DNA from: an uncultured delta proteobacterium
GTDB taxonomy: Bacteria; Myxococcota_A; Polyangia; Fen-1088
Length of the DNA stretch: 64,000 nt
Reading direction: 5' to 3'
NCBI GenBank assembly: GCA_963767925.1
Contig: CAVYGB010000006.1
Coordinates: 32,001-96,000 of the forward strand
Part shown: piece by piece, positions 11,572-50,419 of the stretch
Layout: each line of letters begins with the position of its first letter
Position numbering within the stretch: position 1 is the first letter of the stretch
The notes under the pieces: model-generated
Databases searched by the model: none
What the model was told of the DNA's origin: nothing
What the model saw: the letters and a program-made list of their open reading frames with translations, nothing else
Program-made: the position numbers and the translations under genes

Positions 11572-12605
11572 CACAGCTCCGCGGGCAGTCCGAGGGCCTC
11601 GAGCATCGGTCCGAGGTCGAAGGTCGTGATCTCCTTGATCTGCCCCTGCTCCACCCGCAGGACATCCAGGCTCATCGGGCGGTAGGCGCTCTCGCCGGGC
11701 TTGCGCACGTAACAGGCCACGGCCGGCATGCGGTTGGTGCTGGTGGTGAGGCAGCGGAAGGCTCCGAACCCTTCGCTGCCGAAGCCGCCCTGTATCCAGG
11801 AGGCGACGACGGTGTCCCGCCCCACCCAGGCCCCCGGGTTGGGCGGCATGGCGAAGCGGACGTCCTCGCTGAGCTGGCTGGCCAGCGCCGCCACGTCCCC
11901 CCGCTCGGTCGCCGACACGTAGCGCTCCAGCAGCAAGCGCTGCTGCTCGGCCGGGTCCAGGCCCGGCGGCCACTCCGGCTGCGGATCGGGCTGGTGGGCG
12001 CGCAGGGTGGTCCGGGCCCGCTGCAAGGCGCTGTTCACCGCGGCCACGCTGAGGCCGAGCAGCTCGGCCGCCTCCCGGGCCGACCAGTCGAGCACGTCGC
12101 ACAGGATGAGGGCGGCGCGCGGTTTGGGGGGCAGGAACTGGATCGCCATCAGGTAGGCCAGGGCGATGGTCTCCTTCGCCACCACCGCCGCGTCCGGCTG
12201 CTCCGCCGGCGGCCCGGCCGGGTCGAGGAGGCGATCGGGAAAGGGCTGCAACCACGAGACCTCCGGCGGCGCGGGCGGGCCGGGCTCGGCGGGGGCGTCC
12301 TCGGCCGACGGCTTCAGGCGGTTCCGGTGTTTCTCCAGAAAGTCGAGGCAGGCGTTGGTGGCGATGCCGTACAGCCAGGCGCGCAGCGAGGCGCGCCCCT
12401 CGAAGGTCGCCCGGCCGCGCCAGGCGCGCAGGAAGGTCTCCTGCACGAGGTCCTGGGCGTCCTCGAAGGAGCCCAGCATGCGGTAGCAGTGCACCCGCAG
12501 CTCCCGCCGGTGCCGTTCGAGGAGCCCGGTGAAGGCCTCCGGGTCCTCCGCCTGCGCCACCCGGGCCGCGGTTTCGTCCAGCGTGCGATCGGTTTCGTTC
12601 ATCAT
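11571..12605 (-). CDS. ECF sigma-70 factor with C-terminal SnoaL-like domain (SigG-like)
   Basis: [31 protein letters not shown], region 4 VAAVNSALQRAR, FAMPP, NRMPAVACY. Confidence 0.9.
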   Translation of the reverse strand: MMNETDRTLDETAARVAQAEDPEAFTGLLERHRRELRVHCYRMLGSFEDAQDLVQETFLRAWRGRATFEGRASLRAWLYGIATNACLDFLEKHRNRLKPSAEDAPAEPGPPAPPEVSWLQPFPDRLLDPAGPPAEQPDAAVVAKETIALAYLMAIQFLPPKPRAALILCDVLDWSAREAAELLGLSVAAVNSALQRARTTLRAHQPDPQPEWPPGLDPAEQQRLLLERYVSATERGDVAALASQLSEDVRFAMPPNPGAWVGRDTVVASWIQGGFGSEGFGAFRCLTTSTNRMPAVACYVRKPGESAYRPMSLDVLRVEQGQIKEITTFDLGPMLEALGLPAEL

Positions 12606-12611
12606 GCAAAA

Positions 12612-12641
12612 TATGACTGCCCGGACCGGTGAAACTCATCG
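12612..12641 (-). promoter_or_regulatory. SigG-type autoregulatory promoter CGATGA-N18-GTC, probably leaderless
   Basis: tcatcg at 12636-12641 and gac at 12615-12617 on the plus strand; about 10 nt before ATG 12605 with no RBS. Confidence 0.55.
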
Positions 12642-12733
12642 GCCGGGGCGATCCGGCACGCAAGCCCTGGAAATCGTTCGCCGAGTGGCCGGGGGTCGGC
12701 GGGCCGCCCCGGGGGCTGCTCGGGCGGTGCGGG

Positions 12734-13195
12734 CTAGGAGGCCTCGACCAGGGCGGCGAGCTTGGCCAGGGACGCCTGCCAGCCGAGCTCGTTGTCGGCG
12801 GGCGCCACGCCGGGCGGCACCGAGTCGTGTACGGCGACGACCTCGGTGCCCCCTTCGGGGGCGTCGGCGAGGGCGAAGCTGATGGTCATCTCCCCCTGCA
12901 GGGCGGGATCTTGCGTCTCGAACTCGACGACCTCGACGACCCGCTCGTCGGGCACCAGCTTCACGAAGCGGCCGTGATAGGTGTCGGTGTGAGCGCTGGT
13001 CTTGCCCGCCTCGCTGGGCGCCTCGTAGGTGAGGGAGATGCGGATGGCGCCGCCCTCGCGCGCCTCGTAGGCGTGCACCTCGCTGGTCATGCCGGTCGGC
13101 ACCATCCACCAGGCGACCGCGCGCGAGTCGAGGAGCGCCCGGTACACGGCCGCCCGCGGCGCGTTCACGAGGTGGCGGATGCGGGTCGTGCTCAT
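12734..13195 (-). CDS. SRPBCC/AHSA1-like domain protein
   Basis: VNAPRAAVYRALLD, WMVPTGM, DTYHGRFVKLVPDERVVE, NELGW..SLAKL. Confidence 0.85.
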   Translation of the reverse strand: MSTTRIRHLVNAPRAAVYRALLDSRAVAWWMVPTGMTSEVHAYEAREGGAIRISLTYEAPSEAGKTSAHTDTYHGRFVKLVPDERVVEVVEFETQDPALQGEMTISFALADAPEGGTEVVAVHDSVPPGVAPADNELGWQASLAKLAALVEAS

Positions 13196-13305
13196 GCGCG
13201 AACCGTAGCACCGCGCACCGACGGTGGCGAGACACCGGGTGCGACGATTCGCCCATGAGCACGACCGCGGGATCGTTTCCGGCGACGTCCCGGGCGGGTC
13301 CGTGA

Positions 13306-14166
13306 TCAGGGGGTCTCCCGCACCACCTCGCGGGCGACCTTGTCGAAGCGCACGCCGAGCAGCCGGGGGTGGCGCAACTTCCCGTACCCGGTCCACTGGA
13401 TGAAGGCGACCTGCACGACGATCTCCGGGCGGGCCCAGTGGGCCCCCGTGCGCGGCAGGCCGATCGCCCGGGTGAAGGGCGGCGCCGGCACGGCGAGGGC
13501 ATCGAGCCGCGCGCGCAGGTCGAGCAGGAGGCGCGTGTCGAAGCCGGTGCCCACCTTGCCGGCGAAGACGAGGTCGTCGCCGTCGTAGTAGCCGACCAGC
13601 AGGGCCCCCAGCCCCACCCGGCGGCCCTGAGGGTCGGTGAACCCGCCGACAACCAGCTCCTGGCTGGCCTCGACCTTCATCTTCAGCCAGTGGGGGGAGC
13701 GGCGGTGCTCGTAGGGCGACTCGCGCCGCTTGGCGATCACCCCCTCCCAGCCTTCGCGGGCCGCCAGCAGCCAGGGCTCGGAGTCGTCGAGGGTCTCCAC
13801 CCGCGCGAGGGGCGGCGCCAGCGGCAGGGTCCGCAGCAGGGCCTGCCGCGCGTGCAGGGGCGCCGACATCGTCTCCCGACCATCGAGCCACAGGACGTCG
13901 AACACGTGGTAGGTGGCGCCGTCCCAGGAGACCTCGCCGTCGAGGATGGTCTCGCCCACCGGCAGGGCCGCCAGGGCGGCGGCCACGCCGGGGCAATCCT
14001 GCTCGAGCCGGTTGCGCGACAGCAGGCGCACCCGCGGGCCCTGCTTGAACGCCAGCAGCCGGATGCCGTCGAACTTCCGCTCGAAGATCCATTCGGGACC
14101 GGTGAACCGCTCCTGGGTCAAGGTCGCCGCCATCGGCACCACCCACTCGGGAAAGGCGACCGTCAT
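13306..14166 (-). CDS. ATP-dependent DNA ligase (stand-alone LigD-type ligase domain)
   Basis: ERKFDGIR (KxDG), LDGEV, EGVIAKR, WLKMK, GKVGTGF, LRHPR. Confidence 0.88.
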   Translation of the reverse strand: MTVAFPEWVVPMAATLTQERFTGPEWIFERKFDGIRLLAFKQGPRVRLLSRNRLEQDCPGVAAALAALPVGETILDGEVSWDGATYHVFDVLWLDGRETMSAPLHARQALLRTLPLAPPLARVETLDDSEPWLLAAREGWEGVIAKRRESPYEHRRSPHWLKMKVEASQELVVGGFTDPQGRRVGLGALLVGYYDGDDLVFAGKVGTGFDTRLLLDLRARLDALAVPAPPFTRAIGLPRTGAHWARPEIVVQVAFIQWTGYGKLRHPRLLGVRFDKVAREVVRETP

Positions 14167-14326
14167 CGGCCCATCTTACGCTCTCGACCGTCGGCGACCG
14201 TCCGGCCTGCGGCCAGGCGCCGCGGGAGCCGGCCGCCATCCGGCCGCCGAGCCGCTCGATCCCGGAGATCCGCCGGGTTCTCTCGGCGATCCGGGCGGCA
14301 CGCCGGTTGCTGAACCCCGCGGCTGG

Positions 14327-14575
14327 ATGCGGATCATCCGCCGTTACGCCAACGGGAAGCTCTACGACGCTCTCCGCAGCCGGCACCTCAAGCTGCCGGA
14401 GGTGGCGGCCCTCGTCCGCCTCGGCGAGGACCTCCGCATCATCGAGCACCGGACCGAACGCGACGTCACCGCGATCGTCTTCGCCCAGATCCTCTACGAG
14501 GAGGAGAAGGAGGGCCCCCGCCTCTCGGTGGCCGAGCTGGCGCGTATCATCCGCGAGGGCTTTCGCGAAGACTGA
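14327..14575 (+). CDS. PhaR-like PHA synthesis regulator DNA-binding domain protein
   Basis: RIIRRYANGKLYD...DVTAIVFAQILYEEEK. Confidence 0.75.
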   Translation: MRIIRRYANGKLYDALRSRHLKLPEVAALVRLGEDLRIIEHRTERDVTAIVFAQILYEEEKEGPRLSVAELARIIREGFRED

Positions 14576-41722: not shown

Positions 41723-43768
41723 TCAGGGCTTCTCGCGTTCCCACTCGAGGAGGCCCCGGTCGAGGAGGAGGGGGAGGTCTTCGGTCAGCAGGAAGCGGTC
41801 GCGCACGAGGGCGAGGGCCTGGCGGGTGAAGGCGCCGAGGTAGCTGTCGCGGTCGGGGTAGCGCTCGGCGATCGAGCGGCGGGGGTCGCCGCGGGTCTGC
41901 CGGGCCTGGGCGGTGGGGGGCAGCGGCAGGAACGATCCGAGGAAGCTGACCCGGGCCCAGGGGGCGCCGAGGGTGGGCGCGCGGAGGTTCCAGCCGGTGT
42001 AGGTGGCCAGCGGCGCGAGCAGCTCGGGCAGGCGGACGCCGGCCAGATCGTTGCCGTCGGCGTCGACCTGGGGGACCAGGGTCGGGAAGGGGCGGCCCGC
42101 CAGCGGGGGGTGGCGCGTGACGAGCCCCTGCGCGAAGCGGGGGCCGAAGTCGGTGCGGAAGGCCCGGTGCACGTCGGCGGGTGGGACGGCGCCGGGGATG
42201 GCCGGGAAGGCCAGCTTCTCGCGGGGCACCAGGGTGCCGTCGGCGATGCGCGGGTAGCGGCTGGGCGGCGGGGAGGTGTCGTGCCGGACCCAGGCGTCGA
42301 GGGCGACGATGAGCGACCGCCAGAAGAAGGCCACCGGCAGCGGGCTCTGGGGGTGCAGGCTGGCCCGTTCGCCCTCCCCCGGCCGCGGCGGAAACGGCCC
42401 GCTGAAGTGCTGCAGGCCCGGGAAGGCGTAGACCCGGCTGCTGTCCGGCAAGGGCGCGTCGGCGGCGCCGTCGGGCGTTGTGTGGATCAGCGAGGCGGCG
42501 CGCGACCAGTATTCGTAGGAGGTATTTGTGTGGAAGATCTTCGGCGCCACCTTGCGGGCCACCGCCCGGTCGATGAGCCCCTCGGGGCGACCGCCCGCGG
42601 GATCGCGCAGGGGCAGATCCGCGAAGGGGTAGAGGTCGGTGGCGTAGAGGATCGCGTTCATCGGCTGGGCGTCGCGGGATGGCTGGGCGAAGCGGTGGTT
42701 GAAGTTGCCGCGCCCGGCCCCCGCCACGTGGGAGATCAGCCCGTCGAACACCTGCCGCCCGCCCTGGTCGGCGTTGAAGCCCTCGTGGAGAAAGTGCCGG
42801 AGGAACCGCCCGCTCTGGGAGATGCCCACCCCCAGCGCCCGGCGCACGCGCGGCAGGGGGGAGCGGTCGTGCTTGAGGTGCGAGACCAGGTCGCGCACCG
42901 CCACGAAGCCCAGCCCCGCCACCCGCGGCCCCTCGGCCAGGTAGATCACCTCGTAGATCTTCCCCGGCTGGAACCCGGCGGGCAGGTGCAGGGAGCGCCG
43001 GTCGGGCACCACGGCGCCGCCCGGTGTCGCCTCCCTGCCAAAGCGCCACTGCCCGCGTGAGATGGGCTGGCGGGCGCCGAGCGGCGTGTCGCGCACGGTG
43101 AGGAGGTTGTCCGCGCTGTCCGGGTCGGCCGCCTCGTACTCCAGGCCGCCGAGGGCGCCGCTGATCACGTGCCCCAGGGGATGATCGTGCGCCGGCGCGA
43201 CGACCGTGAAGTCGGAGCGCACCAGCCCGCGGATTGACTTGCCCCGCTCGGTCGCCACCGGCGCGGACAGGCGCAGGCGGTGGGGCTCGTCGCGGACGTC
43301 CCACTGCCAGCCGACCCAGGCCACGGTGAAGCCCCGGTTCATCAGGAAGCCGTCGCCGAAGTCCGCCTCCTTCTCCGGGTCGATGGCGCTGACCGCCCGG
43401 TTGGCGATGGCGAGGATGCCCTTGCCGCCCCGGTTGGGCACCTCCAGCAGGAGGGTGCCGTTGCCCCGGGCGGCATCGCGGGGGGCCAGCAGCACGACGT
43501 CCGCCCAGGCCTCCACCTCGCCGCGGGCATTGCGCGGGGCCAGCGCCAGATCGACGATGGCCCGGTTGGCGGGATCCTCCGGGCGGACCGCCAGGTGCAC
43601 GCGGCCCACGATCTTCTCGTAGGGGCCGACGCCCCCGAAGGCCTTGCCGCCCGCCACCACGTGCCGGTCGAGGATCTCGATCCGCTCGACCCGGGCCGCC
43701 GCCGGTGCGGCCAGCCCGCCGGCCAGGGCGGCGACCGCGAGGGAGACCGTCAGGGCGGGCCGGCGCAT
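41723..43768 (-). CDS. Secreted alpha/beta hydrolase domain protein
   Basis: Signal peptide, EVPNRG, VGWQWD, GISQSGRFL nucleophile elbow, VDADGND, YTGWN. Confidence 0.8.
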   Translation of the reverse strand: MRRPALTVSLAVAALAGGLAAPAAARVERIEILDRHVVAGGKAFGGVGPYEKIVGRVHLAVRPEDPANRAIVDLALAPRNARGEVEAWADVVLLAPRDAARGNGTLLLEVPNRGGKGILAIANRAVSAIDPEKEADFGDGFLMNRGFTVAWVGWQWDVRDEPHRLRLSAPVATERGKSIRGLVRSDFTVVAPAHDHPLGHVISGALGGLEYEAADPDSADNLLTVRDTPLGARQPISRGQWRFGREATPGGAVVPDRRSLHLPAGFQPGKIYEVIYLAEGPRVAGLGFVAVRDLVSHLKHDRSPLPRVRRALGVGISQSGRFLRHFLHEGFNADQGGRQVFDGLISHVAGAGRGNFNHRFAQPSRDAQPMNAILYATDLYPFADLPLRDPAGGRPEGLIDRAVARKVAPKIFHTNTSYEYWSRAASLIHTTPDGAADAPLPDSSRVYAFPGLQHFSGPFPPRPGEGERASLHPQSPLPVAFFWRSLIVALDAWVRHDTSPPPSRYPRIADGTLVPREKLAFPAIPGAVPPADVHRAFRTDFGPRFAQGLVTRHPPLAGRPFPTLVPQVDADGNDLAGVRLPELLAPLATYTGWNLRAPTLGAPWARVSFLGSFLPLPPTAQARQTRGDPRRSIAERYPDRDSYLGAFTRQALALVRDRFLLTEDLPLLLDRGLLEWEREKP

Positions 43769-43769
43769 G

Positions 43770-45371
43770 TCAGCGCGGCGTGGGCGCGGGGGCCAGCGGT
43801 CCGAAGACGTGCAGGCCGCGCCCCTCGGGCGCGGTCTCGGCGGTGCCGAACACGACCGCGTCGCTGGCCCGGCCGACCACCGAGACGTTGTCCCGGTCCA
43901 CCTCGGACAGGATCACCTTGCCAGCGACGTCGGCCGGGCGCCCGTCGAAGTCGGCCAGGTGCAGGAAGGTCAGCACGCGCGAGTCGCGAGCCACCGCCCG
44001 GCCCACCACCAGCCCGCGGGGGCCGCTGGCCACCAGGTACTGCAGGCCCCGCCCCAGGACCTGGACCCCGCCGCAGTCCTCCGGCCGGGCCACGAAGGTC
44101 AAGCTGCCCGCTTCGTCCTGCGGGTCGGGCTCGCTCCAGTGGACGAGGCCCAGGTTGGCGATCACCGTCGCGGTGTAGGCGATGGTCTCGGGGCTGCTCG
44201 ACAGCCGGCAGGAGGTCCCCCGCTCGTTGTCGCCGATGAGCCCCCGCTCGCCCGCGTCGTCGACCTGCAGGACGTAGGTGAAGCGACCGTCGCCGAGCGG
44301 GTACCAGGCGTGGGCGCCGGGCGCGAGGGTGAAGCGCCCCTCGGGCTGGCGGCGATCCTTGACCACGTTGAGCACCCCCTCGAGGCCGCGCAGCTCGGTG
44401 ACGAAGGTGACCCCCTCGCCCGCCAGCGGCTCGAACCCGGCCACGCCCTTGGCCAGCTCGCCGGTCAGAGTGCCGGAGGGGAAGTCGGCCGCCCAGAGAG
44501 GGCCCTCGCCGCGATCCCGCGAGCCGCCCCGCAGGAAGAACACCGCCTGCCCGTCGGCCGAGAAGGTCCAGTACCAGCCGTCCTCGACGACGGTGCGGGC
44601 GCTGGCCCGCCCCAGCTCGGCCACCGGCACGGCTCGCAGCGCCTCGGCCACCTCCCCCTCGCGCCAGCTCGAATACACGAACTGCCTCTCGTCGCGCGAG
44701 AACTGGGCCGACCAGGAGAGGCCCCCGCCCCGCTCGGGGGCGATGCGCTCGATCAGCGGCAGCAGGCTGTCGTCGCGATCGACGAGCGGCCCGGCCCGCA
44801 GGTCGAACTCGAGCGGATCGTCGTCGACCCCGTCGATGCAGAAGGCGTAGCGGCCGCTGGGGCTGCCCACGCACTGCACACCGCGCGCGGTCGAGAGCTT
44901 GCGGGGGCCGGCCCAGCCCGGTCGCCAGGCCCAGACGAAGCCCTCGTAGCGGTCGCGGTTGGCCTCGGGGTGCTCCTCGGCGAGGAAAAACAGCGTGTCC
45001 CCCTCGAACCGATGGGCCTCCGGGTGCGACATGCTGCCGATGCGCAGCTCCGTGAACAGGCGGTCGGTCATGCGCAGGCAGCCGGAGCTGCGGCCGTCGC
45101 AGGCCACCGCCTCACCGCCCATGACCCGGGTGACGTCGATGACCCAGAGCTCGGTGCGGAGGGCGTCTTCGGGGGTCGGCCGATAAAAGGCGCAGTAGCG
45201 GTGTCCGTTCGGCTCCGTCGGGTCGCCCTGGCTGCAGGCGCCGCTGCCGCTCCAGCCTGCCAGCCGGGCGGGGCCAGGCACCAGGAGCCGCAGCTCCGGC
45301 GGGGCCGCCAGGTCCCCCTCGCAGGCCGCCACCAACCCCAGCAACACCGAGTAGCGAAGCACCGCCCGCAT
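43770..45371 (-). CDS. Hypothetical lipoprotein, probable beta-propeller
   Basis: Lipobox VAAC; repeated FSRDE/FSADG-type blades; several Cys. Confidence 0.7.
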   Translation of the reverse strand: MRAVLRYSVLLGLVAACEGDLAAPPELRLLVPGPARLAGWSGSGACSQGDPTEPNGHRYCAFYRPTPEDALRTELWVIDVTRVMGGEAVACDGRSSGCLRMTDRLFTELRIGSMSHPEAHRFEGDTLFFLAEEHPEANRDRYEGFVWAWRPGWAGPRKLSTARGVQCVGSPSGRYAFCIDGVDDDPLEFDLRAGPLVDRDDSLLPLIERIAPERGGGLSWSAQFSRDERQFVYSSWREGEVAEALRAVPVAELGRASARTVVEDGWYWTFSADGQAVFFLRGGSRDRGEGPLWAADFPSGTLTGELAKGVAGFEPLAGEGVTFVTELRGLEGVLNVVKDRRQPEGRFTLAPGAHAWYPLGDGRFTYVLQVDDAGERGLIGDNERGTSCRLSSSPETIAYTATVIANLGLVHWSEPDPQDEAGSLTFVARPEDCGGVQVLGRGLQYLVASGPRGLVVGRAVARDSRVLTFLHLADFDGRPADVAGKVILSEVDRDNVSVVGRASDAVVFGTAETAPEGRGLHVFGPLAPAPTPR

Positions 45372-45524
45372 ATGCCGAGCAGCAGAGCACGCTGACGCGG
45401 GACGATCAAGCACGACAGGGAGCAGCAGAGACGCCGAGCTCGGATGGCCCTGGAATCCCAGGTCCGTCCGATCTCGGCGGCTCCGTTGCTCCCTGCGAAT
45501 GTGCGCGTCGGGACGGCACCGGTC

Positions 45525-46187
45525 CTACCGGGCGATGAGCGTCCGGCTGTGGTTCATGCCGGCCAGACCGGCCTTGATCCCGCTGCGCACCACCAGGCCG
45601 GACTTGTTGTGGTTCATCCCGGCCAGACCGGCCTTGATCCCGCTGCGCACCACCAGCCCGGACTTGTTGTGGTTCATCCCGGCCAGACCGGCCTTGATCC
45701 CGCTGCGTACCACCAGCCCGGACTTGTTGTGGTTCATCCCGGCCAGACCGGCCTTGATCCCGCTGCGCACCACCAGCCCGGACTTGTTGTGGTTCATCCC
45801 GGCCAGGCCGGCCTTGATCCCGCTGCGCACCACCAGCCCGGACTTGTTGTGGTTCATCCCGGCCAGGCCGGCCTTGATCCCGCTGCGCACCACCAGCCCG
45901 GACTTGTTGTGGTTCATCCCGGCCAGGCCGGCCTTGATCCCGCTGCGCACCACCAGCCCGGACTTGTTGTGGTTCATCCCGGCCAGGCCGGCCTTGATCC
46001 CGCTGCGCACCACCAGCCCGGACTTGTTGTGGTTCATCCCGGCCAGGCCGGCCTTGATCCCGCTGCGCACCACCAGCCCGGACTTGTTGTGGTTCATCCC
46101 GGCCAGGCCGGCCTTGATCCCGCTGCGCACCACCAGCCCGGACTTGTTCTCGACCTTGGTGTTGATGGCGGACTTGATGGTCTTCAT
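45525..46187 (-). CDS. Tandem-repeat peptide (candidate multi-core precursor): 14-aa leader + 10 x KSGLVVRSGIKAGLAGMNH(N/S) + RTLIAR
   Basis: GAAAGGT RBS before ATG 46187; inter-repeat nucleotide differences are all synonymous in this frame only. Confidence 0.85.
   Translation of the reverse strand: MKTIKSAINTKVENKSGLVVRSGIKAGLAGMNHNKSGLVVRSGIKAGLAGMNHNKSGLVVRSGIKAGLAGMNHNKSGLVVRSGIKAGLAGMNHNKSGLVVRSGIKAGLAGMNHNKSGLVVRSGIKAGLAGMNHNKSGLVVRSGIKAGLAGMNHNKSGLVVRSGIKAGLAGMNHNKSGLVVRSGIKAGLAGMNHNKSGLVVRSGIKAGLAGMNHSRTLIAR
45548..46148. repeat. Tandem array of 10 x 60-bp coding repeats
   Basis: Consecutive 60-nt lines 45541-46140 are nearly identical. Confidence 0.97.
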
Positions 46188-46254
46188 AGCTGTGTACCTT
46201 TCTCTCGGAGTTTTCTTCGTTCCCGGCCCGACTGACCGGACGAATCTCAGAGAT

Positions 46255-46270
46255 TGCAGGGATGGTGCCA
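46255..46270 (-). promoter_or_regulatory. Sigma54 (-24/-12) promoter TGGCACCATCCCTGCA for the repeat-peptide gene
   Basis: TGGCAC-N6-TGCA with exact GG-N10-GC spacing, about 70 nt upstream of the ATG. Confidence 0.6.
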
Positions 46271-46380
46271 GGTCGCCCGGGGGCGCTCCCGGGGCCGATG
46301 AGGGCGAGATCACGGGGCCTCGGGCCGCCCGCTGCCCCGTGGATCAGCCCCGCGACCCGGTTTCAAGCCCGCCAACCACA

Positions 46381-46400
46381 GTGACTCGCGCGCGAGTCAC
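46381..46400. promoter_or_regulatory. Perfect 20-bp palindrome GTGACTCGCGCGCGAGTCAC (possible enhancer site or hairpin)
   Basis: Self-complementary; 110-130 nt upstream of the -24 box and directly after the radical SAM stop. Confidence 0.45.
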
Positions 46401-46409
46401 GTGATTCGA

Positions 46410-48350
46410 CTAGCTGCCAGCCAGGGCGCGTCGGATGAGGTCGGGAGCGACGCGGGCGGCGGGGATGGCCCGGCGCCGATCCCGGTCGAACCAGCTCCGC
46501 ACGTCCCGGTCCAGCCCGACGCCGTGCATGTAATTGTAGAGCGCCTTGCGCAGGCCCGGACCCAGCCGCTCGTGGTCGCAGCCGGTGGGGTCGTCGAAGG
46601 GGACCTCGTTGCGGGCGAAGGTGGCGGGCGCCTCCGGGCGCAGGCGGATCCCGAACAGGTCGGGCCGCTGCCCGATCGGGCTGTGGGCGGTCGCCGCGAA
46701 GCGGTGCCAGAACCCCGACTGGATGCATCCTTCGGCGAAGAGCTGACGCACGCGTTCGAGGGCGTCGACCGTCTCCTGCTCGGTCTCGCTGGGGAAGCCG
46801 TACATGAGATAGGCGTGCACGAGCACCCCGGCATCGCTGAAGGCCCGCGCCACCCGCGCCACCTGGGCCACCGTGACGCCCTTCTTCATGAGGTCGAGCA
46901 GCCGGTCCGAGGCAACCTCGAGCCCGCCGCTCACCGCCACGCAGCCCGAGCGGGCCAGCAGCTCGACCAGGCCCGGGGTGAAGCTCTTCTCGAAGCGGAT
47001 GTTCCCCCACCACGTGATGGCGAGCTGGCGATCGATCAGGCGCTGGGCCAGCGCGCGCAGAGCCGCCGGGGGGGCCGCCTCGTCGACGAAGTGAAACCCG
47101 GTCTGCCCGGTCTCGCGCACCAGCGCCTCGATGCGGTCGACGGTGACCTCGGCCGAGGCGGCCTCGTAGCGGGAGATGTAGTCGAGGGTGACGTCGCAGA
47201 AGGTGCACTTCTTCCAGTAGCAGCCGCGGGCCACCGTCAGCTTGTTCCAGCGCCCGTCCGACCAGAGGCGGTGCATGGGGTTGAGCATCTCGAAGAGCGA
47301 CACGTAGCTGCCCAGGGGGAGGCCGTCGTAGGTCGGCGTGCCGGTCTCGGCGTGGTGCAGATCGGAGAGCCCCTCGCTCGTCGCCAGCACCACCGCCCCC
47401 TCCCGGCGGACGAAGGTGCGCAGCAGCGGCCGGGCGGGATCGCGCAGGTGATCGATCAGGGCCAGCAGCGGCCGCTCGCCGTCGTCGAGGGTGAGGAAGT
47501 CGCAGGCCTCGAACACGCGGGGCTCGGCGAGCTGGCGCAGCTCCGTGTTGACGTAGCCACCGCCCAGCGCGACCTGGGTGCCGGGGCGTTCGGCCTTGAC
47601 CACCCGGGCGATGCGCAGGGCCCCGTAGAGGTTTCCCGGGAAGGGGACGGTCAGCCCGAGCAGGTCGGGCGCCTGGCTGCACACCCGGTCGCGGGCCAGC
47701 CGGTCGAGCTCGGCGTCGACCAGGGTGGGCGGGCCTTGCAGGGCCTCGGCCAGGTCGTCGAAGCGGCTGGCGCTGGCGGCGAGCTTCTCGCCGTAGCGGG
47801 ACAGCTCGAAGCGGGGGTCGATCCCGTCGCGGATGACGTCGGCGATCTCGTCGACGAACAGGCTCGCCAGGTGGCGGGCACGGTCGGTGGTGCCGAGGTC
47901 GCCGAAGGCCCAGCCGAGCGGGTCGTCGCCGGACGGATCGGCGGGGAGGGCGGCGGCGAAGCGCGGCCCTTCCGGCAAGAAAGTGCGCCCCACGATGCGC
48001 ATCGCCAGGCTGGGATCCCGCCCCTGCAGGAAGGCGATGACCGGCTCGACGAGGGCCAGGTAACGCTCGGCCTGATCGAGGAAGAAGCCCACCGAGGGAG
48101 GCTCGTCCCGACGGCGGGCAGCCGCGCGGCCCCGGCCCGAGGGCGCAGCTCGCTGCCCCTCGAGCTGCGCCCGCACCTTGCCCAGCCCCTCCCGGGAGAA
48201 GAGCCGCAAGAACAGCTCGATCGAGAGGTCGGCCTGGGCGACCTCGACGCCGGCGGGGGCGTGTTTGCGCAGGCAGCCGGTCAGGTACGCCGTCGCCGGG
48301 TAGGGCGTATTCAACTGCGTCATCGGCGGCGTCACCAGGAGCACGCGCAT
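46410..48350 (-). CDS. B12-binding-domain-type radical SAM protein
   Basis: N-terminal VTPPMTQLNTPYPATAYL, ALGGGY, cluster motif RGCYWKKCTFCD, FVDEA, SGGLE, YLMYGFP. Confidence 0.88.
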   Translation of the reverse strand: MRVLLVTPPMTQLNTPYPATAYLTGCLRKHAPAGVEVAQADLSIELFLRLFSREGLGKVRAQLEGQRAAPSGRGRAAARRRDEPPSVGFFLDQAERYLALVEPVIAFLQGRDPSLAMRIVGRTFLPEGPRFAAALPADPSGDDPLGWAFGDLGTTDRARHLASLFVDEIADVIRDGIDPRFELSRYGEKLAASASRFDDLAEALQGPPTLVDAELDRLARDRVCSQAPDLLGLTVPFPGNLYGALRIARVVKAERPGTQVALGGGYVNTELRQLAEPRVFEACDFLTLDDGERPLLALIDHLRDPARPLLRTFVRREGAVVLATSEGLSDLHHAETGTPTYDGLPLGSYVSLFEMLNPMHRLWSDGRWNKLTVARGCYWKKCTFCDVTLDYISRYEAASAEVTVDRIEALVRETGQTGFHFVDEAAPPAALRALAQRLIDRQLAITWWGNIRFEKSFTPGLVELLARSGCVAVSGGLEVASDRLLDLMKKGVTVAQVARVARAFSDAGVLVHAYLMYGFPSETEQETVDALERVRQLFAEGCIQSGFWHRFAATAHSPIGQRPDLFGIRLRPEAPATFARNEVPFDDPTGCDHERLGPGLRKALYNYMHGVGLDRDVRSWFDRDRRRAIPAARVAPDLIRRALAGS

Positions 48351-48455: not shown

Positions 48456-49241
48456 ATGCTGGTCAGCCCGATCTCGCGATCCAGTCTGGACTCGGATAGC
48501 CGGGAACGCGTCATGGAGGCCATGGCCCGACGCAGGCCCCGCGCGAGCAAAGCCGAACCCGGTGACCCGGTCGACCCGACCGATCTCGTCGACCTGCGCG
48601 TCAGGACCGGCGAGGTCGCCAAGGACGACGAAACCCGGCGCGCCAACGAAAAAGAGAAGGACAAGGGCAAAGCTCCGACCACCGATCCCACCCGCGAGGA
48701 CGAAGAGCTCGACCCGCGCGAGCGGGCCCAGGTGGAGGGCCTGCGCCGCCGCGACCGCGAGGTGCGGGCCCACGAGGCGGCGCATGCCGCGGCCGCCGGC
48801 GGCCTGGGGGGCGGAGCGTCTTATACCTACGTGACCGGTCCCGACGGCAAGCGCTACGCCGTCGGCGGCGAGGTCCCGGTGCGGCTGGCCACCGGCCACA
48901 CGCCCGAGGAGACCCTCCGCAACGCACAGCAGGTGCGCGCCGCCGCCTTGGCCCCGGCCGAGCCCTCCAGCCAGGACCGGGCCGTCGCCGCCCAGGCCAC
49001 CGCCATGGAGGCCGCTGCGCGCATGGAGATGTCCCGGACCCGCGACGTCGAAGCCGCCGAACGGGCCGTCCGCGCCCGCGCGCAGGGCGCCAGCCGCGCC
49101 TCGGACAACCGGACCGTCGACCCCGAAGCCACCCTCCGCCAGCTCGAACGCGAGCAACGCACCGTCCGCGGCGGCTGGAAGCACCTCCACAGCAGCGGCG
49201 GCTGCGGCGGCTGCGCCGTGGCGGTCGCCGCGTACCGGTAG
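48456..49241 (+). CDS. SprA-related family protein (HExxH, putative metalloprotease)
   Basis: DREVRAHEAAH, YTYVTGPDGKRYAVGGEV, AALAPAEPSSQDRAVA. Confidence 0.82.
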   Translation: MLVSPISRSSLDSDSRERVMEAMARRRPRASKAEPGDPVDPTDLVDLRVRTGEVAKDDETRRANEKEKDKGKAPTTDPTREDEELDPRERAQVEGLRRRDREVRAHEAAHAAAAGGLGGGASYTYVTGPDGKRYAVGGEVPVRLATGHTPEETLRNAQQVRAAALAPAEPSSQDRAVAAQATAMEAAARMEMSRTRDVEAAERAVRARAQGASRASDNRTVDPEATLRQLEREQRTVRGGWKHLHSSGGCGGCAVAVAAYR

Positions 49242-49635: not shown

Positions 49636-50322
49636 TCACTGAAGGATCTTGGGGGACTCGCCGGGGTCGATCAAACCGCGGCGGCGCCAGCCCACCGTGG
49701 CGAGCCAGGTGCGGGCGGAACCGGTGACCGAGGGTTCGGACGGCGGCGTGAGGGGGAAGCGGAAGCCGTCGAACCAGGGGGCCGAGGAGCAGGGGGCCGA
49801 GGAGCAGGGGTCGATGTGCCCGCGGTCGCGCAGACCGTGTTTCTTGTGGTTCATGAGAACGTAGACGAGCGCGTTGCGTACCTCCCGCGGCGTCGCCAGC
49901 TCGCGCGCGTGATACCGGTCGCCCCAGATGCGGCCGCTGCGCTTGCAGGCTCGGTTGCTGGCCAGCGCGCTCCGGATCACCAGCCTCCGCGCGCCGAAAG
50001 AGAGCGCCGCCTTGTCCTCCGCCTCCACCAGCAGGTGCACGTGATCGGCCTGCACCGAGAACTGCACGACCCGGAACACCGCTGAGCTCGACGCGCGAAA
50101 GCAGTCCCGCAACACCTGGAAGATCCGCTTGCTCCGCAGCGAGACCAACCCTGCCCTGGCGCGCAAGGTCACGTGCAACGGATGGGCGCCCTTGTGGGGC
50201 GGCCGCGCCCGATGCGGCGCCGGCCGCCTCCGCCCGAGAATCGGAGGCCGCCCGGCCCCCTTCCGTCGCCCACCCCACCCGGAGGTCCGAGGCAAGGCGA
50301 GCGAGCGTGACGCGGGCGACAT
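49636..50322 (-). mobile_element. HUH/Y1 tyrosine transposase (REP-associated/RAYT-like), copy 2
   Basis: Highly similar to copy 1; DHVHLLVEA, IWGDRYH, YVLMNHKKH; carries a 15-bp duplication (PCSSA twice). Confidence 0.75.
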
Positions 50323-50419
50323 TCCATTTGATTGAGGCAATAGTATTGCCCATGCAGCAAAATTCAAGTACGAACGTACGGTCCGGTTCGAGCGGGCGTC
50401 GCTGTCGACCAGCGGCGGT

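Follow-up and report, generated by a model that had tools for sequence, protein, structure and literature searches.

Precursors that carry several peptide cores are known from the cyanobactin PatE and from fungal Kex2-processed repeats such as alpha-factor and the ustiloxin UstA. Double-glycine peptide systems form another group, which includes the ComC/ComAB/ComDE pheromone circuits, the class II bacteriocins, and the Nif11/NHLP leaders with the NHLM exporter pair. The consensus of the double-glycine leader is given as Leu-12, Glu-8, Leu-7, and Val-4 in one report, which states of the Nif11-type leaders that 'Position -3 is almost invariably an Ala' (PMC6363468). Extracytoplasmic function (ECF) sigma factors under the control of Ser/Thr kinases have also been described as a class (PMC7826278; PMC13147305). 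Here, we analysed a tandem-repeat peptide gene in a 64-kb stretch of contig CAVYGB010000006.1 from an uncultured delta proteobacterium; this whole stretch is referred to as the window. It proved to be a member of a large family, so far without a name, whose products are small and very basic tandem-repeat peptides of soil bacteria. We put the chance at about even that it is a stand-alone, sigma-54-transcribed member of the family whose product is regulated, exported, and probably cut into its units.

The gene occupies 45525..46187 on the minus strand, from the ATG at 46187-46185 to the stop codon at 45527-45525, and encodes a 220-aa peptide. Its assignment was based on the translation, on family homologues in relatives, and on a family profile (A1). 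The peptide is composed of a 14-aa head MKTIKSAINTKVEN, ten 20-aa units KSGLVVRSGIKAGLAGMNH(N/S), and a 6-aa tail RTLIAR; the ten units are copies of KSGLVVRSGIKAGLAGMNHN, and only the last one terminates in NHS. The DNA encoding the units is a 60-bp x 10 tandem array (45548..46148, minus strand), which Tandem Repeats Finder detected as a single array with a period of 60, 10.0 copies, 99% matches, 0 indels, and a score of 1153. A Shine-Dalgarno-like AGAAAGG was read from the sequence 9 nt 5' of the ATG (46197..46203, minus strand). The first-pass annotation had described a repeat open reading frame (ORF) with a ribosome-binding site, ten 20-aa units, and the RTLIAR tail, 220 aa in all, and both the translation and Tandem Repeats Finder agreed with it. 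The same annotation had called the units cationic and free of acidic residues, and this was borne out by the composition of the peptide (K 23, R 12, H 10, D 0, E 1, C 0; pI ~12), in which the sole Glu sits in the head. In agreement with its remark that there is no signal peptide, no hydrophobic N-terminal stretch was visible in the sequence.

The coding strand required separate consideration. The opposite plus-strand frame is also open over 301 aa. Five sites vary among the ten DNA units, four of them being synonymous at the third codon position and the fifth changing Asn to Ser in the last unit. The plus frame sees only silent changes too; as both open frames have their third codon positions at the same nucleotides, the silent changes cannot decide the strand. 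However, the plus frame would require TTG three times, AGA, and AGG in every unit. We therefore took the minus strand as the coding strand on the basis of the codon choice, the ribosome-binding site and ATG, and above all the protein-level homologues in other genomes. The ten near-identical units look like a recent expansion. Contigs of 90-406 bases from three soil-metagenome DNA runs were inspected, none of which spanned the array, so that they gave no independent count of ten units; no RNA run containing the sequence was listed.

A word-indexed protein search with the window peptide, at near and shorter lengths, returned nothing, and the family surfaced only through six-frame and full HMMER searches. 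When 89 genomes of the same bacterial family were searched in six frames, homologues were found in 53 at E <= 1 and in 40 at E <= 1e-4 by our own count, and 25 of the 26 genomes of one genus (g2) contained them. Outside this family, only 3 of 400 evenly sampled genomes of the phylum had homologues. With HMMER, 387 of 1.84 billion representatives matched at E <= 1e-3. Roughly two in three of the best 150 listed were shorter than 235 aa, and the 56 homologues that were fetched had 2-6 units each. According to the record titles, related loci came from metagenome-assembled genomes of Polyangia and Myxococcales. A second set came from soil-type metagenome contigs with a GC content of 54-65%, in which N-H-N-Q replaces N-H-N-R. 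In the Atlas, a homologue (P0093) fell only into unnamed clusters, the commonest phyla being Acidobacteriota and Myxococcota, and the window peptide had no entry. None of 15 typical members matched a Pfam or NCBIfam model, the window peptide matched no Pfam repeat family beyond three spurious rows without a matched stretch, and no relative of the family profile was found in the PDB. We found no published account of the family in a literature coverage that lacked most subscription journals and supplements. Gene callers probably often overlook these genes. Elsewhere in the phylum, in another bacterial family, the repeat-unit profile also matched inside open frames of 577-949 aa (G491, contigs C12, C202, and C3, loci L090-L092); such frames may encode long repeat proteins or may simply be antisense.

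The family pattern is L-x-V-K/R-S/T-x-V/I-K-A-G, followed by a variable segment of 3-6 aa and then by N-H-N-R/Q. We counted residues over 570 units of 170 non-identical peptides, numbering the positions from the G of KAG. Leu was found at position -10 in 76% of the units, Val at -8 in 81%, Lys or Arg at -7 in 90%, Ser or Thr at -6 in 88% (Ala in 9%), and Val or Ile at -4 in 84%. The following positions were Lys at -3 (89%), Ala at -2 (91%), and Gly at -1 (91%). The variable segment was mostly 4-5 aa long and occurred in 361 distinct versions, and its length differed even within a single protein. It was followed by N-H and then by Asn (78%) or Ser (16%), after which came Arg or Gln; the N and H were invariant in the MAFFT alignment A1. 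The multi-core cassette proposed in the first-pass annotation holds as far as conserved flanks around a variable segment are concerned, whereas the boundary it had drawn has to be shifted, the variable part lying between KAG and NHN.

Peptides contained 1-14 units, mostly 2-4, with a median of 16 aa ahead of the first KAG. Within an array, the DNA units were 86-99% identical in eight further loci of the Polyangia type; the single lower-GC metagenome array that was tested gave 79%. Furthermore, the unit number was 2, 3, or 4 among otherwise near-identical metagenome loci. These results show that units are rapidly gained, lost, and homogenised. Among the near-identical loci, the same peptide has 3 units in L134, 4 in L136, 3 in L144, and 2 in L154, which is a unit-number polymorphism in natural populations; a resolvase gene lies just upstream in that lineage (L138, 8911-9645).

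Subsequently, the region upstream of the peptide gene was examined for promoter elements. The consensus of sigma-54 promoters at -24/-12 is GG-N10-GC, of the type TGGCAC-N5-TTGC. By motif search, an element of this type, TGGCACCATCCCTGC (GG-N10-GC), was found 83 nt 5' of the ATG (46256..46270, minus strand). It was the sole match to TGGCAY-N6-TGC on both strands of the window, with 1.03 matches expected anywhere in the window. The strict form TGGCA[CT]-N6-TGC was present 59-94 nt 5' of the start codon in 22 of 34 Polyangia-type family genes, plus the window gene, and in 0 of 23 genes of the lower-GC set. When both strands of 1.5 Mb of locus sequence were searched, 29 matches were obtained, of which 23 were the elements of family genes and 6 were others. 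The genome has rpoN, as judged by a Sigma54_DBD match, and at least nine matches to sigma-54 activators, none of which is encoded within the window. The Sigma54_DBD match (genome G000, contig C8, 278763-279240) is split into two overlapping pieces in frames of 166 and 55 aa, which suggests that rpoN has a frameshift or an assembly error.

The genes without the sigma-54 element were those adjoining dedicated sigma factors. Three of them (L077, L081, and L099) adjoin a TIGR03001 gene and share TGCGTC(C)-N6/7-TGCGGATGG at ~80-95 nt 5' of the peptide start, and a GAGCC...GCGT(T/C)C pattern recurs upstream of the lower-GC genes. It is possible that both patterns are promoters of the dedicated sigma factors.

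Genes next to the family peptides were surveyed in 34 distinct loci including the window; genes were called by GC3, and neighbours within 9 kb were clustered. The loci L090, L091, and L092 (G491) and L094, in which the motif filter gave no peptide ORF, were left out, as were a further five related loci, and four of the fetched stretches were combined with their duplicates. Ser/Thr kinase and TPR proteins were present in 25 of the 34 loci, and an ATP-binding cassette (ABC) exporter pair, one subunit of which has a Peptidase_C39 domain, in 16. A sigma factor of ~290 aa whose score exceeded the TIGR03001 cut-off ('Myxococcales family 1') was directly adjacent in 5 loci, and an FHA/sigma-54 activator was nearby in 5 of the 34. 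DUF5916 was found in 15 loci, at the edge of a block of rpoD, biotin carrier, FtsW/RodA, ArsA-like, and DUF5916 genes; because this is the edge of a housekeeping block, we regarded its presence as synteny, not function. No tailoring enzyme recurred among the neighbour clusters of the 34 loci, in which not every neighbour gene was scanned. In L040, a TfuA-YcaO pair assigned by Pfam (11840-14457) lies 3-5 kb from the peptide gene between kinase/TPR genes; it could introduce thioamides into the peptide in this lineage only, or could belong to another cluster. At the matching position, L042 (12038-14766) has two unannotated ORFs of comparable size.

In the kinases, a single membrane helix follows immediately on the kinase domain, so that ~500 aa including the TPRs face the periplasm. 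Five genomes of genus g2 gave only 5-11 matches each to the periplasmic domain of the kinase; hence, a kinase should rarely lie within 18 kb of a peptide gene by chance. A STAND/NLR-type kinase-TPR protein, which would favour amyloid signalling, was considered as well and was rejected, with a Walker A motif in 0 of 50 cluster members.

As for the exporter, the C39 domain of one protein aligned with PCAT1, and its active-site Cys, His, and Asp were all retained. The best NCBIfam matches of the pair were TIGR03796 and TIGR03797, the NHLP exporter subunits, with scores far below the cut-offs (165-183 bits against 853 for TIGR03796). The first-pass annotation had seen no C39 exporter at this locus, which is correct for the window and not for the family. 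An arrangement of the same kind was observed in the lower-GC lineage, which is independent: kinase and TPR genes lie to either side of the peptide gene in L132 and to one side in L152, a gene for an ECF sigma factor (PF07638) stands beside it in L152 and L139, and an HlyD and a C39 protein follow it directly in L135.

From these arrangements and from the unit pattern, we infer cleavage, export, an extracellular role, and signal-dependent transcription of the family peptide. Each unit of ~20 aa comprises a conserved beta-strand-like segment ending in K-A-G, a hypervariable segment of 3-6 residues, and the invariant N-H-(N/S). The peptide would be made only on a signal, when the kinase acts on an FHA-type enhancer-binding protein or on an ECF-like sigma factor, and would be exported through a peptidase-containing (C39) ABC transporter, with cutting probably at the K-A-G(-G) of every unit. 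Because every unit would be cut, one precursor would yield many copies of a cationic peptide of ~20 aa. Outside the cell, the released peptide would either signal to the TPR kinases, which would read it, or have an antimicrobial action. Several features speak for cutting: the head before the first KAG is as long as a double-glycine leader, and an identical motif precedes every unit. Furthermore, the Ala at -3 before G-G in the family fits the rule for Nif11-type leaders (PMC6363468).

Several results weigh against this proposal. With respect to cutting, the family leader is devoid of Leu-12, Glu-8, and Leu-7; it has L(-10), V(-8), K/R(-7), and V/I(-4), and no Glu. Only 401 of 570 units have G, A, or S next to K-A-G, where every one of the ten window units has Leu. 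With respect to export, the exporter is not within 9 kb in 18 of the 34 loci, and no family peptide was near five exporter loci of the genera g8 and g16. By a hand count, an exporter orthologue was present in 33 of 40 peptide-positive but also in 29 of 49 peptide-negative genomes, so the association between exporter and peptide at the level of genomes is weak. As for the kinase, 16 other paralogous kinase loci lack the peptide, indicating that only a subset of the TPR kinases is involved. The window copy itself has no partner kinase and TPR gene, exporter gene, or sigma-factor gene within 9 kb, and the best match to the partner kinase domain in its genome, which is 84% complete, showed only 29% identity. 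Lastly, the fold predicted for the ten-unit protein, described below, would fit an uncut structural protein.

A further step can be proposed only tentatively, and we hold it to be possible while rather doubtful: the family members may be the tandem pro-peptides of an auto-inducing, strain-specific channel for communication or kin recognition in Gram-negative soil bacteria. The hypervariable 3-6 residues would then set the specificity of the peptide, and the periplasmic TPR domain of the neighbouring Hanks-type kinase would read the ~20-aa peptide. The kinase would in turn drive the FHA-type sigma-54 activator or the ECF-like sigma factor, whereupon the peptide gene would be transcribed again, and the number of units would act as a gain control. 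A complex prediction with the kinase periplasmic domain (377-876) and a three-unit peptide scored 0.01 against a mark of 0.32, which weighs neither way.

We also examined whether the repeats might form a structural protein that is never cut. The units would stack as a beta-solenoid or an amyloid-like fibre, with one coil per 20-aa unit and turns made of Asn and Gly; the protein would be secreted or surface-associated, and short members would polymerise. AlphaFold2 did predict a regular beta-solenoid for the ten-unit window protein from the single sequence (pLDDT 74.8, pTM 0.65), and a fold of this kind would be well served by the conserved Gly and Asn and by the alternation of hydrophobic residues. 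Foldseek gave no match in the PDB at E <= 1e-3; its weak rows were all beta-solenoids (such as pentapeptide-repeat, antifreeze, and tailspike proteins), and families of the solenoid type are among the structural neighbours listed for the P0093 model in the Atlas. However, perfect repeats tend to draw solenoid predictions from AlphaFold2. A typical three-unit member modelled with a 13-row alignment came out disordered (pLDDT 40.4, pTM 0.13), and the Atlas model of P0093 had a pLDDT of only 0.52. Furthermore, a net charge of ~+3.5 per coil with no acidic residue would disfavour stacking, and the variable loop changes in length within one protein. Since AlphaFold2 folded the ten-unit but not the three-unit member and Foldseek remained blank at the threshold, we consider an uncut structural protein unlikely.

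An exported and cut peptide must also be weighed against an intracellular one. In that case, the product would stay in the cell as a partner of the kinase/sigma modules, being a multi-site phospho-acceptor, a decoy substrate, or a modulator of the sigma factor. The kinase is the commonest neighbour, the Ser/Thr at -6 would offer one conserved acceptor in most units, and the peptide gene abuts a same-strand sigma-factor gene in four loci (L077, L081, L088, and L099). Nevertheless, this position is Ala in the minority of units noted above, and throughout in some members. The sensor domains of the kinases face the periplasm, and a catalytically intact C39 exporter pair or HlyD adjoins the peptide gene in the 16 exporter-bearing loci of the census and in L135. 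Taken together, these findings make an intracellular role improbable.

The copy in the window stands alone as an orphan: no second member of the KAG...NHN family was found in the 9.3-Mb genome, the window copy matching profile A1 with 372.7 bits while no other match was obtained. An orthologue of the exporter pair (43-55% identity) is encoded on contig C10, not near the window copy. At 3 kb from this orthologue lies an ORF of 525 aa (genome G000, contig C10, 1239202-1240779) that contains a short tandem repeat; the repeat appears as 'MLWPPTFWPP' in the antisense frame. The genes following the peptide gene on the minus strand encode a protein of 547 aa (43770-45413), which begins like a lipoprotein and matched neither Pfam nor NCBIfam, and, next to it, a 681-aa Abhydrolase_10 protein (41723-43768). 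Neither recurred beside family peptides in the neighbour census. On the other side, beyond the radical SAM gene described below, a 261-aa protein of the SprA-related family (PF12118, 85.7 bits) is encoded divergently at 48456-49241 on the plus strand. A 243-aa ORF lies 1.3 kb beyond the radical SAM gene on the minus strand (49636-50367); it gave a weak match to IS200-like Y1 transposases (25.8 bits) and one of 41.9 bits to REP-associated tyrosine transposases (RAYT), for which the cut-off is 80.

This situation would also be expected if the window gene were a functionless remnant, namely a recently amplified orphan whose partners have been lost and which was brought by chance or by mobile DNA. 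Besides its solitary state, the absence of partners within 9 kb, and the lack of a close partner kinase in the genome, the near identity of the ten units and the RAYT/IS200-like gene 3.4 kb away are compatible with such an origin, as is the finding that a relative of the same genus (G001) shows no copy in an assembly of 870 contigs. On the other hand, the ORF, the ribosome-binding site, and the sigma-54 element are intact, the four third-position substitutions in the array are all silent, and the exporter-pair orthologue has been kept on contig C10. We therefore judged a remnant to be of low probability and retained the regulated, exported peptide as the preferred reading.

Finally, the gene upstream of the peptide gene was considered. 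As the first-pass annotation had stated, a gene for a 646-aa radical SAM (rSAM) protein is present at 46410..48350 on the same minus strand, and its stop codon lies 222 nt 5' of the peptide ATG. The protein scored 53.6 bits against Pfam Radical_SAM (PF04055; cut-off 29.5) and only 22.8 bits against B12-binding (PF02310; cut-off 32.1). All 22 of its NCBIfam matches fell below their cut-offs, the top one being TIGR03975 with 90.6 bits against a cut-off of 281.85. According to Pfam, NCBIfam, and the neighbourhoods of its orthologues, it is a radical SAM protein with a weak B12-binding match and a neighbour only.

Orthologues (53-80% identity) were found in 24 of 24 genomes of the same bacterial family, with matches in 37 of 41 relatives searched. 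As counted from the search table, 16 of the 24 genomes bearing the enzyme had no detectable peptide at E <= 1e-4. We then searched 22 stretches (231 kb) around the orthologues in 15 relatives by tblastn and with the profile; the flanks examined were 1.5-7 kb, and the window served as the positive control with 372.7 bits. A family peptide was beside the enzyme in 0 of the 15 relatives. There was no conserved neighbour of the enzyme, and no neighbour in the window recurred beside the orthologues. In the reverse direction, the enzyme was found in 0 of 66 peptide-bearing stretches (806 kb, tblastn, E <= 1e-3). In one genome (G024, contig C4, 80543-82533), the orthologue was matched in three pieces, which suggests frameshifts, i.e., a pseudogene or long-read errors.

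Between the two genes, a perfect 20-nt GC-rich palindrome, unique in the window, starts 9 nt 3' of the rSAM stop codon (46381..46400, minus strand). Its RNA fold was calculated as -21.7 kcal/mol (z = -3.8 against shuffles), and it is probably a transcript-end hairpin that separates the rSAM gene and the peptide gene. A simple scan of 45300-46500 for sigma-70 promoters and T-run terminators gave no match; the palindrome was passed over because it is followed by no T run.

It had been proposed that the rSAM enzyme and the peptide are partners, and that co-occurrence of their homologs would be the check. The partnership did not survive these counts, and no co-occurrence was seen in the flanks of the 15 relatives; the accompanying caveat that the adjacency may be coincidental proved right. 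Thus, a multi-core precursor of a peptide that is made by ribosomes and modified after translation (RiPP), with units that are modified (e.g., C-methylated) by the adjacent B12-type enzyme and then excised, would suit the same-strand genes 222 nt apart, a best NCBIfam match to a RiPP C-methyltransferase family, and the conserved flanks round a variable core, but is very improbable in view of the sub-cut-off TIGR03975 score, the orthologues in all 24 family genomes searched, with neither conserved neighbours nor, in the 15 relatives, a peptide beside them, and the sigma-54 promoter and hairpin that set the peptide gene apart. For these reasons, the enzyme was judged to be a chance neighbour and not part of the peptide system.

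If the preferred reading of a regulated, exported, and cut peptide is true, Myxococcota and a second, lower-GC soil lineage would export peptides cut from a tandem precursor, and these peptides would be coupled to receptor kinases of the eukaryote-like kind, together with sigma-54 or ECF sigma factors, in place of two-component systems. The family offers a concrete candidate for the ligand of a group of orphan receptor Ser/Thr kinases, which is testable with synthetic peptides. It has 387 cluster representatives and occurs in 40 of 89 genomes of one bacterial family without being covered by a curated model. For genome mining, it follows that a RiPP cluster should not be called merely because a repeat peptide adjoins a B12 radical SAM gene.

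Comparison with the known systems was made as follows. The class B rSAM peptide methyltransferases (TIGR03975 'rSAM_ocin_1', proteusin-type) resemble the locus in that a B12-type rSAM gene adjoins a peptide gene, in this window only; they differ in that the window enzyme is below the cut-off, does not co-occur with the peptide, and belongs to a separate transcription unit. With multi-core RiPPs and propeptides, the family shares tandem cassettes, conserved recognition flanks, short variable cores, and a variable copy number. Unlike them, its annotated loci have no tailoring enzyme or PatA/PatG-type protease, with YcaO and TfuA in L040 only.

The kinase-regulated ECF systems, namely ECF43 with its related groups, PknT/EcfP of Vibrio parahaemolyticus, and PknS/EcfK of Xanthomonas citri, are similar in that a transmembrane Hanks kinase adjoins an ECF-type sigma factor and no anti-sigma factor is seen. 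Here, in contrast, a repeat-peptide gene is wedged into the module, the kinase has a periplasmic TPR part, and most Polyangia copies, including that of the window, use a sigma-54 promoter.

The double-glycine peptide systems with a peptidase-containing ATP-binding transporter (PCAT) differ from the family in several respects. The family motif is repeated in every unit, 2-14 times, and does not occur only once; the leader is basic, not acidic, and is without Leu-12/Glu-8/Leu-7. The sensor is a Hanks-type receptor kinase with periplasmic TPR, not a histidine kinase, and the genes are under sigma-54 or ECF control. Furthermore, the hosts are Gram-negative, and the window copy has no exporter nearby. 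The likenesses, on the other hand, are as follows: a small ribosomal peptide stands beside an ABC exporter with an N-terminal C39 domain whose Cys, His, and Asp are kept, the exporter is paired with best matches to TIGR03796 and TIGR03797, the head of ~19 aa ends in A-G(-G), and a dedicated sensor and regulator are encoded next door. From this comparison, we infer that the family works most like the double-glycine peptide/PCAT circuits.

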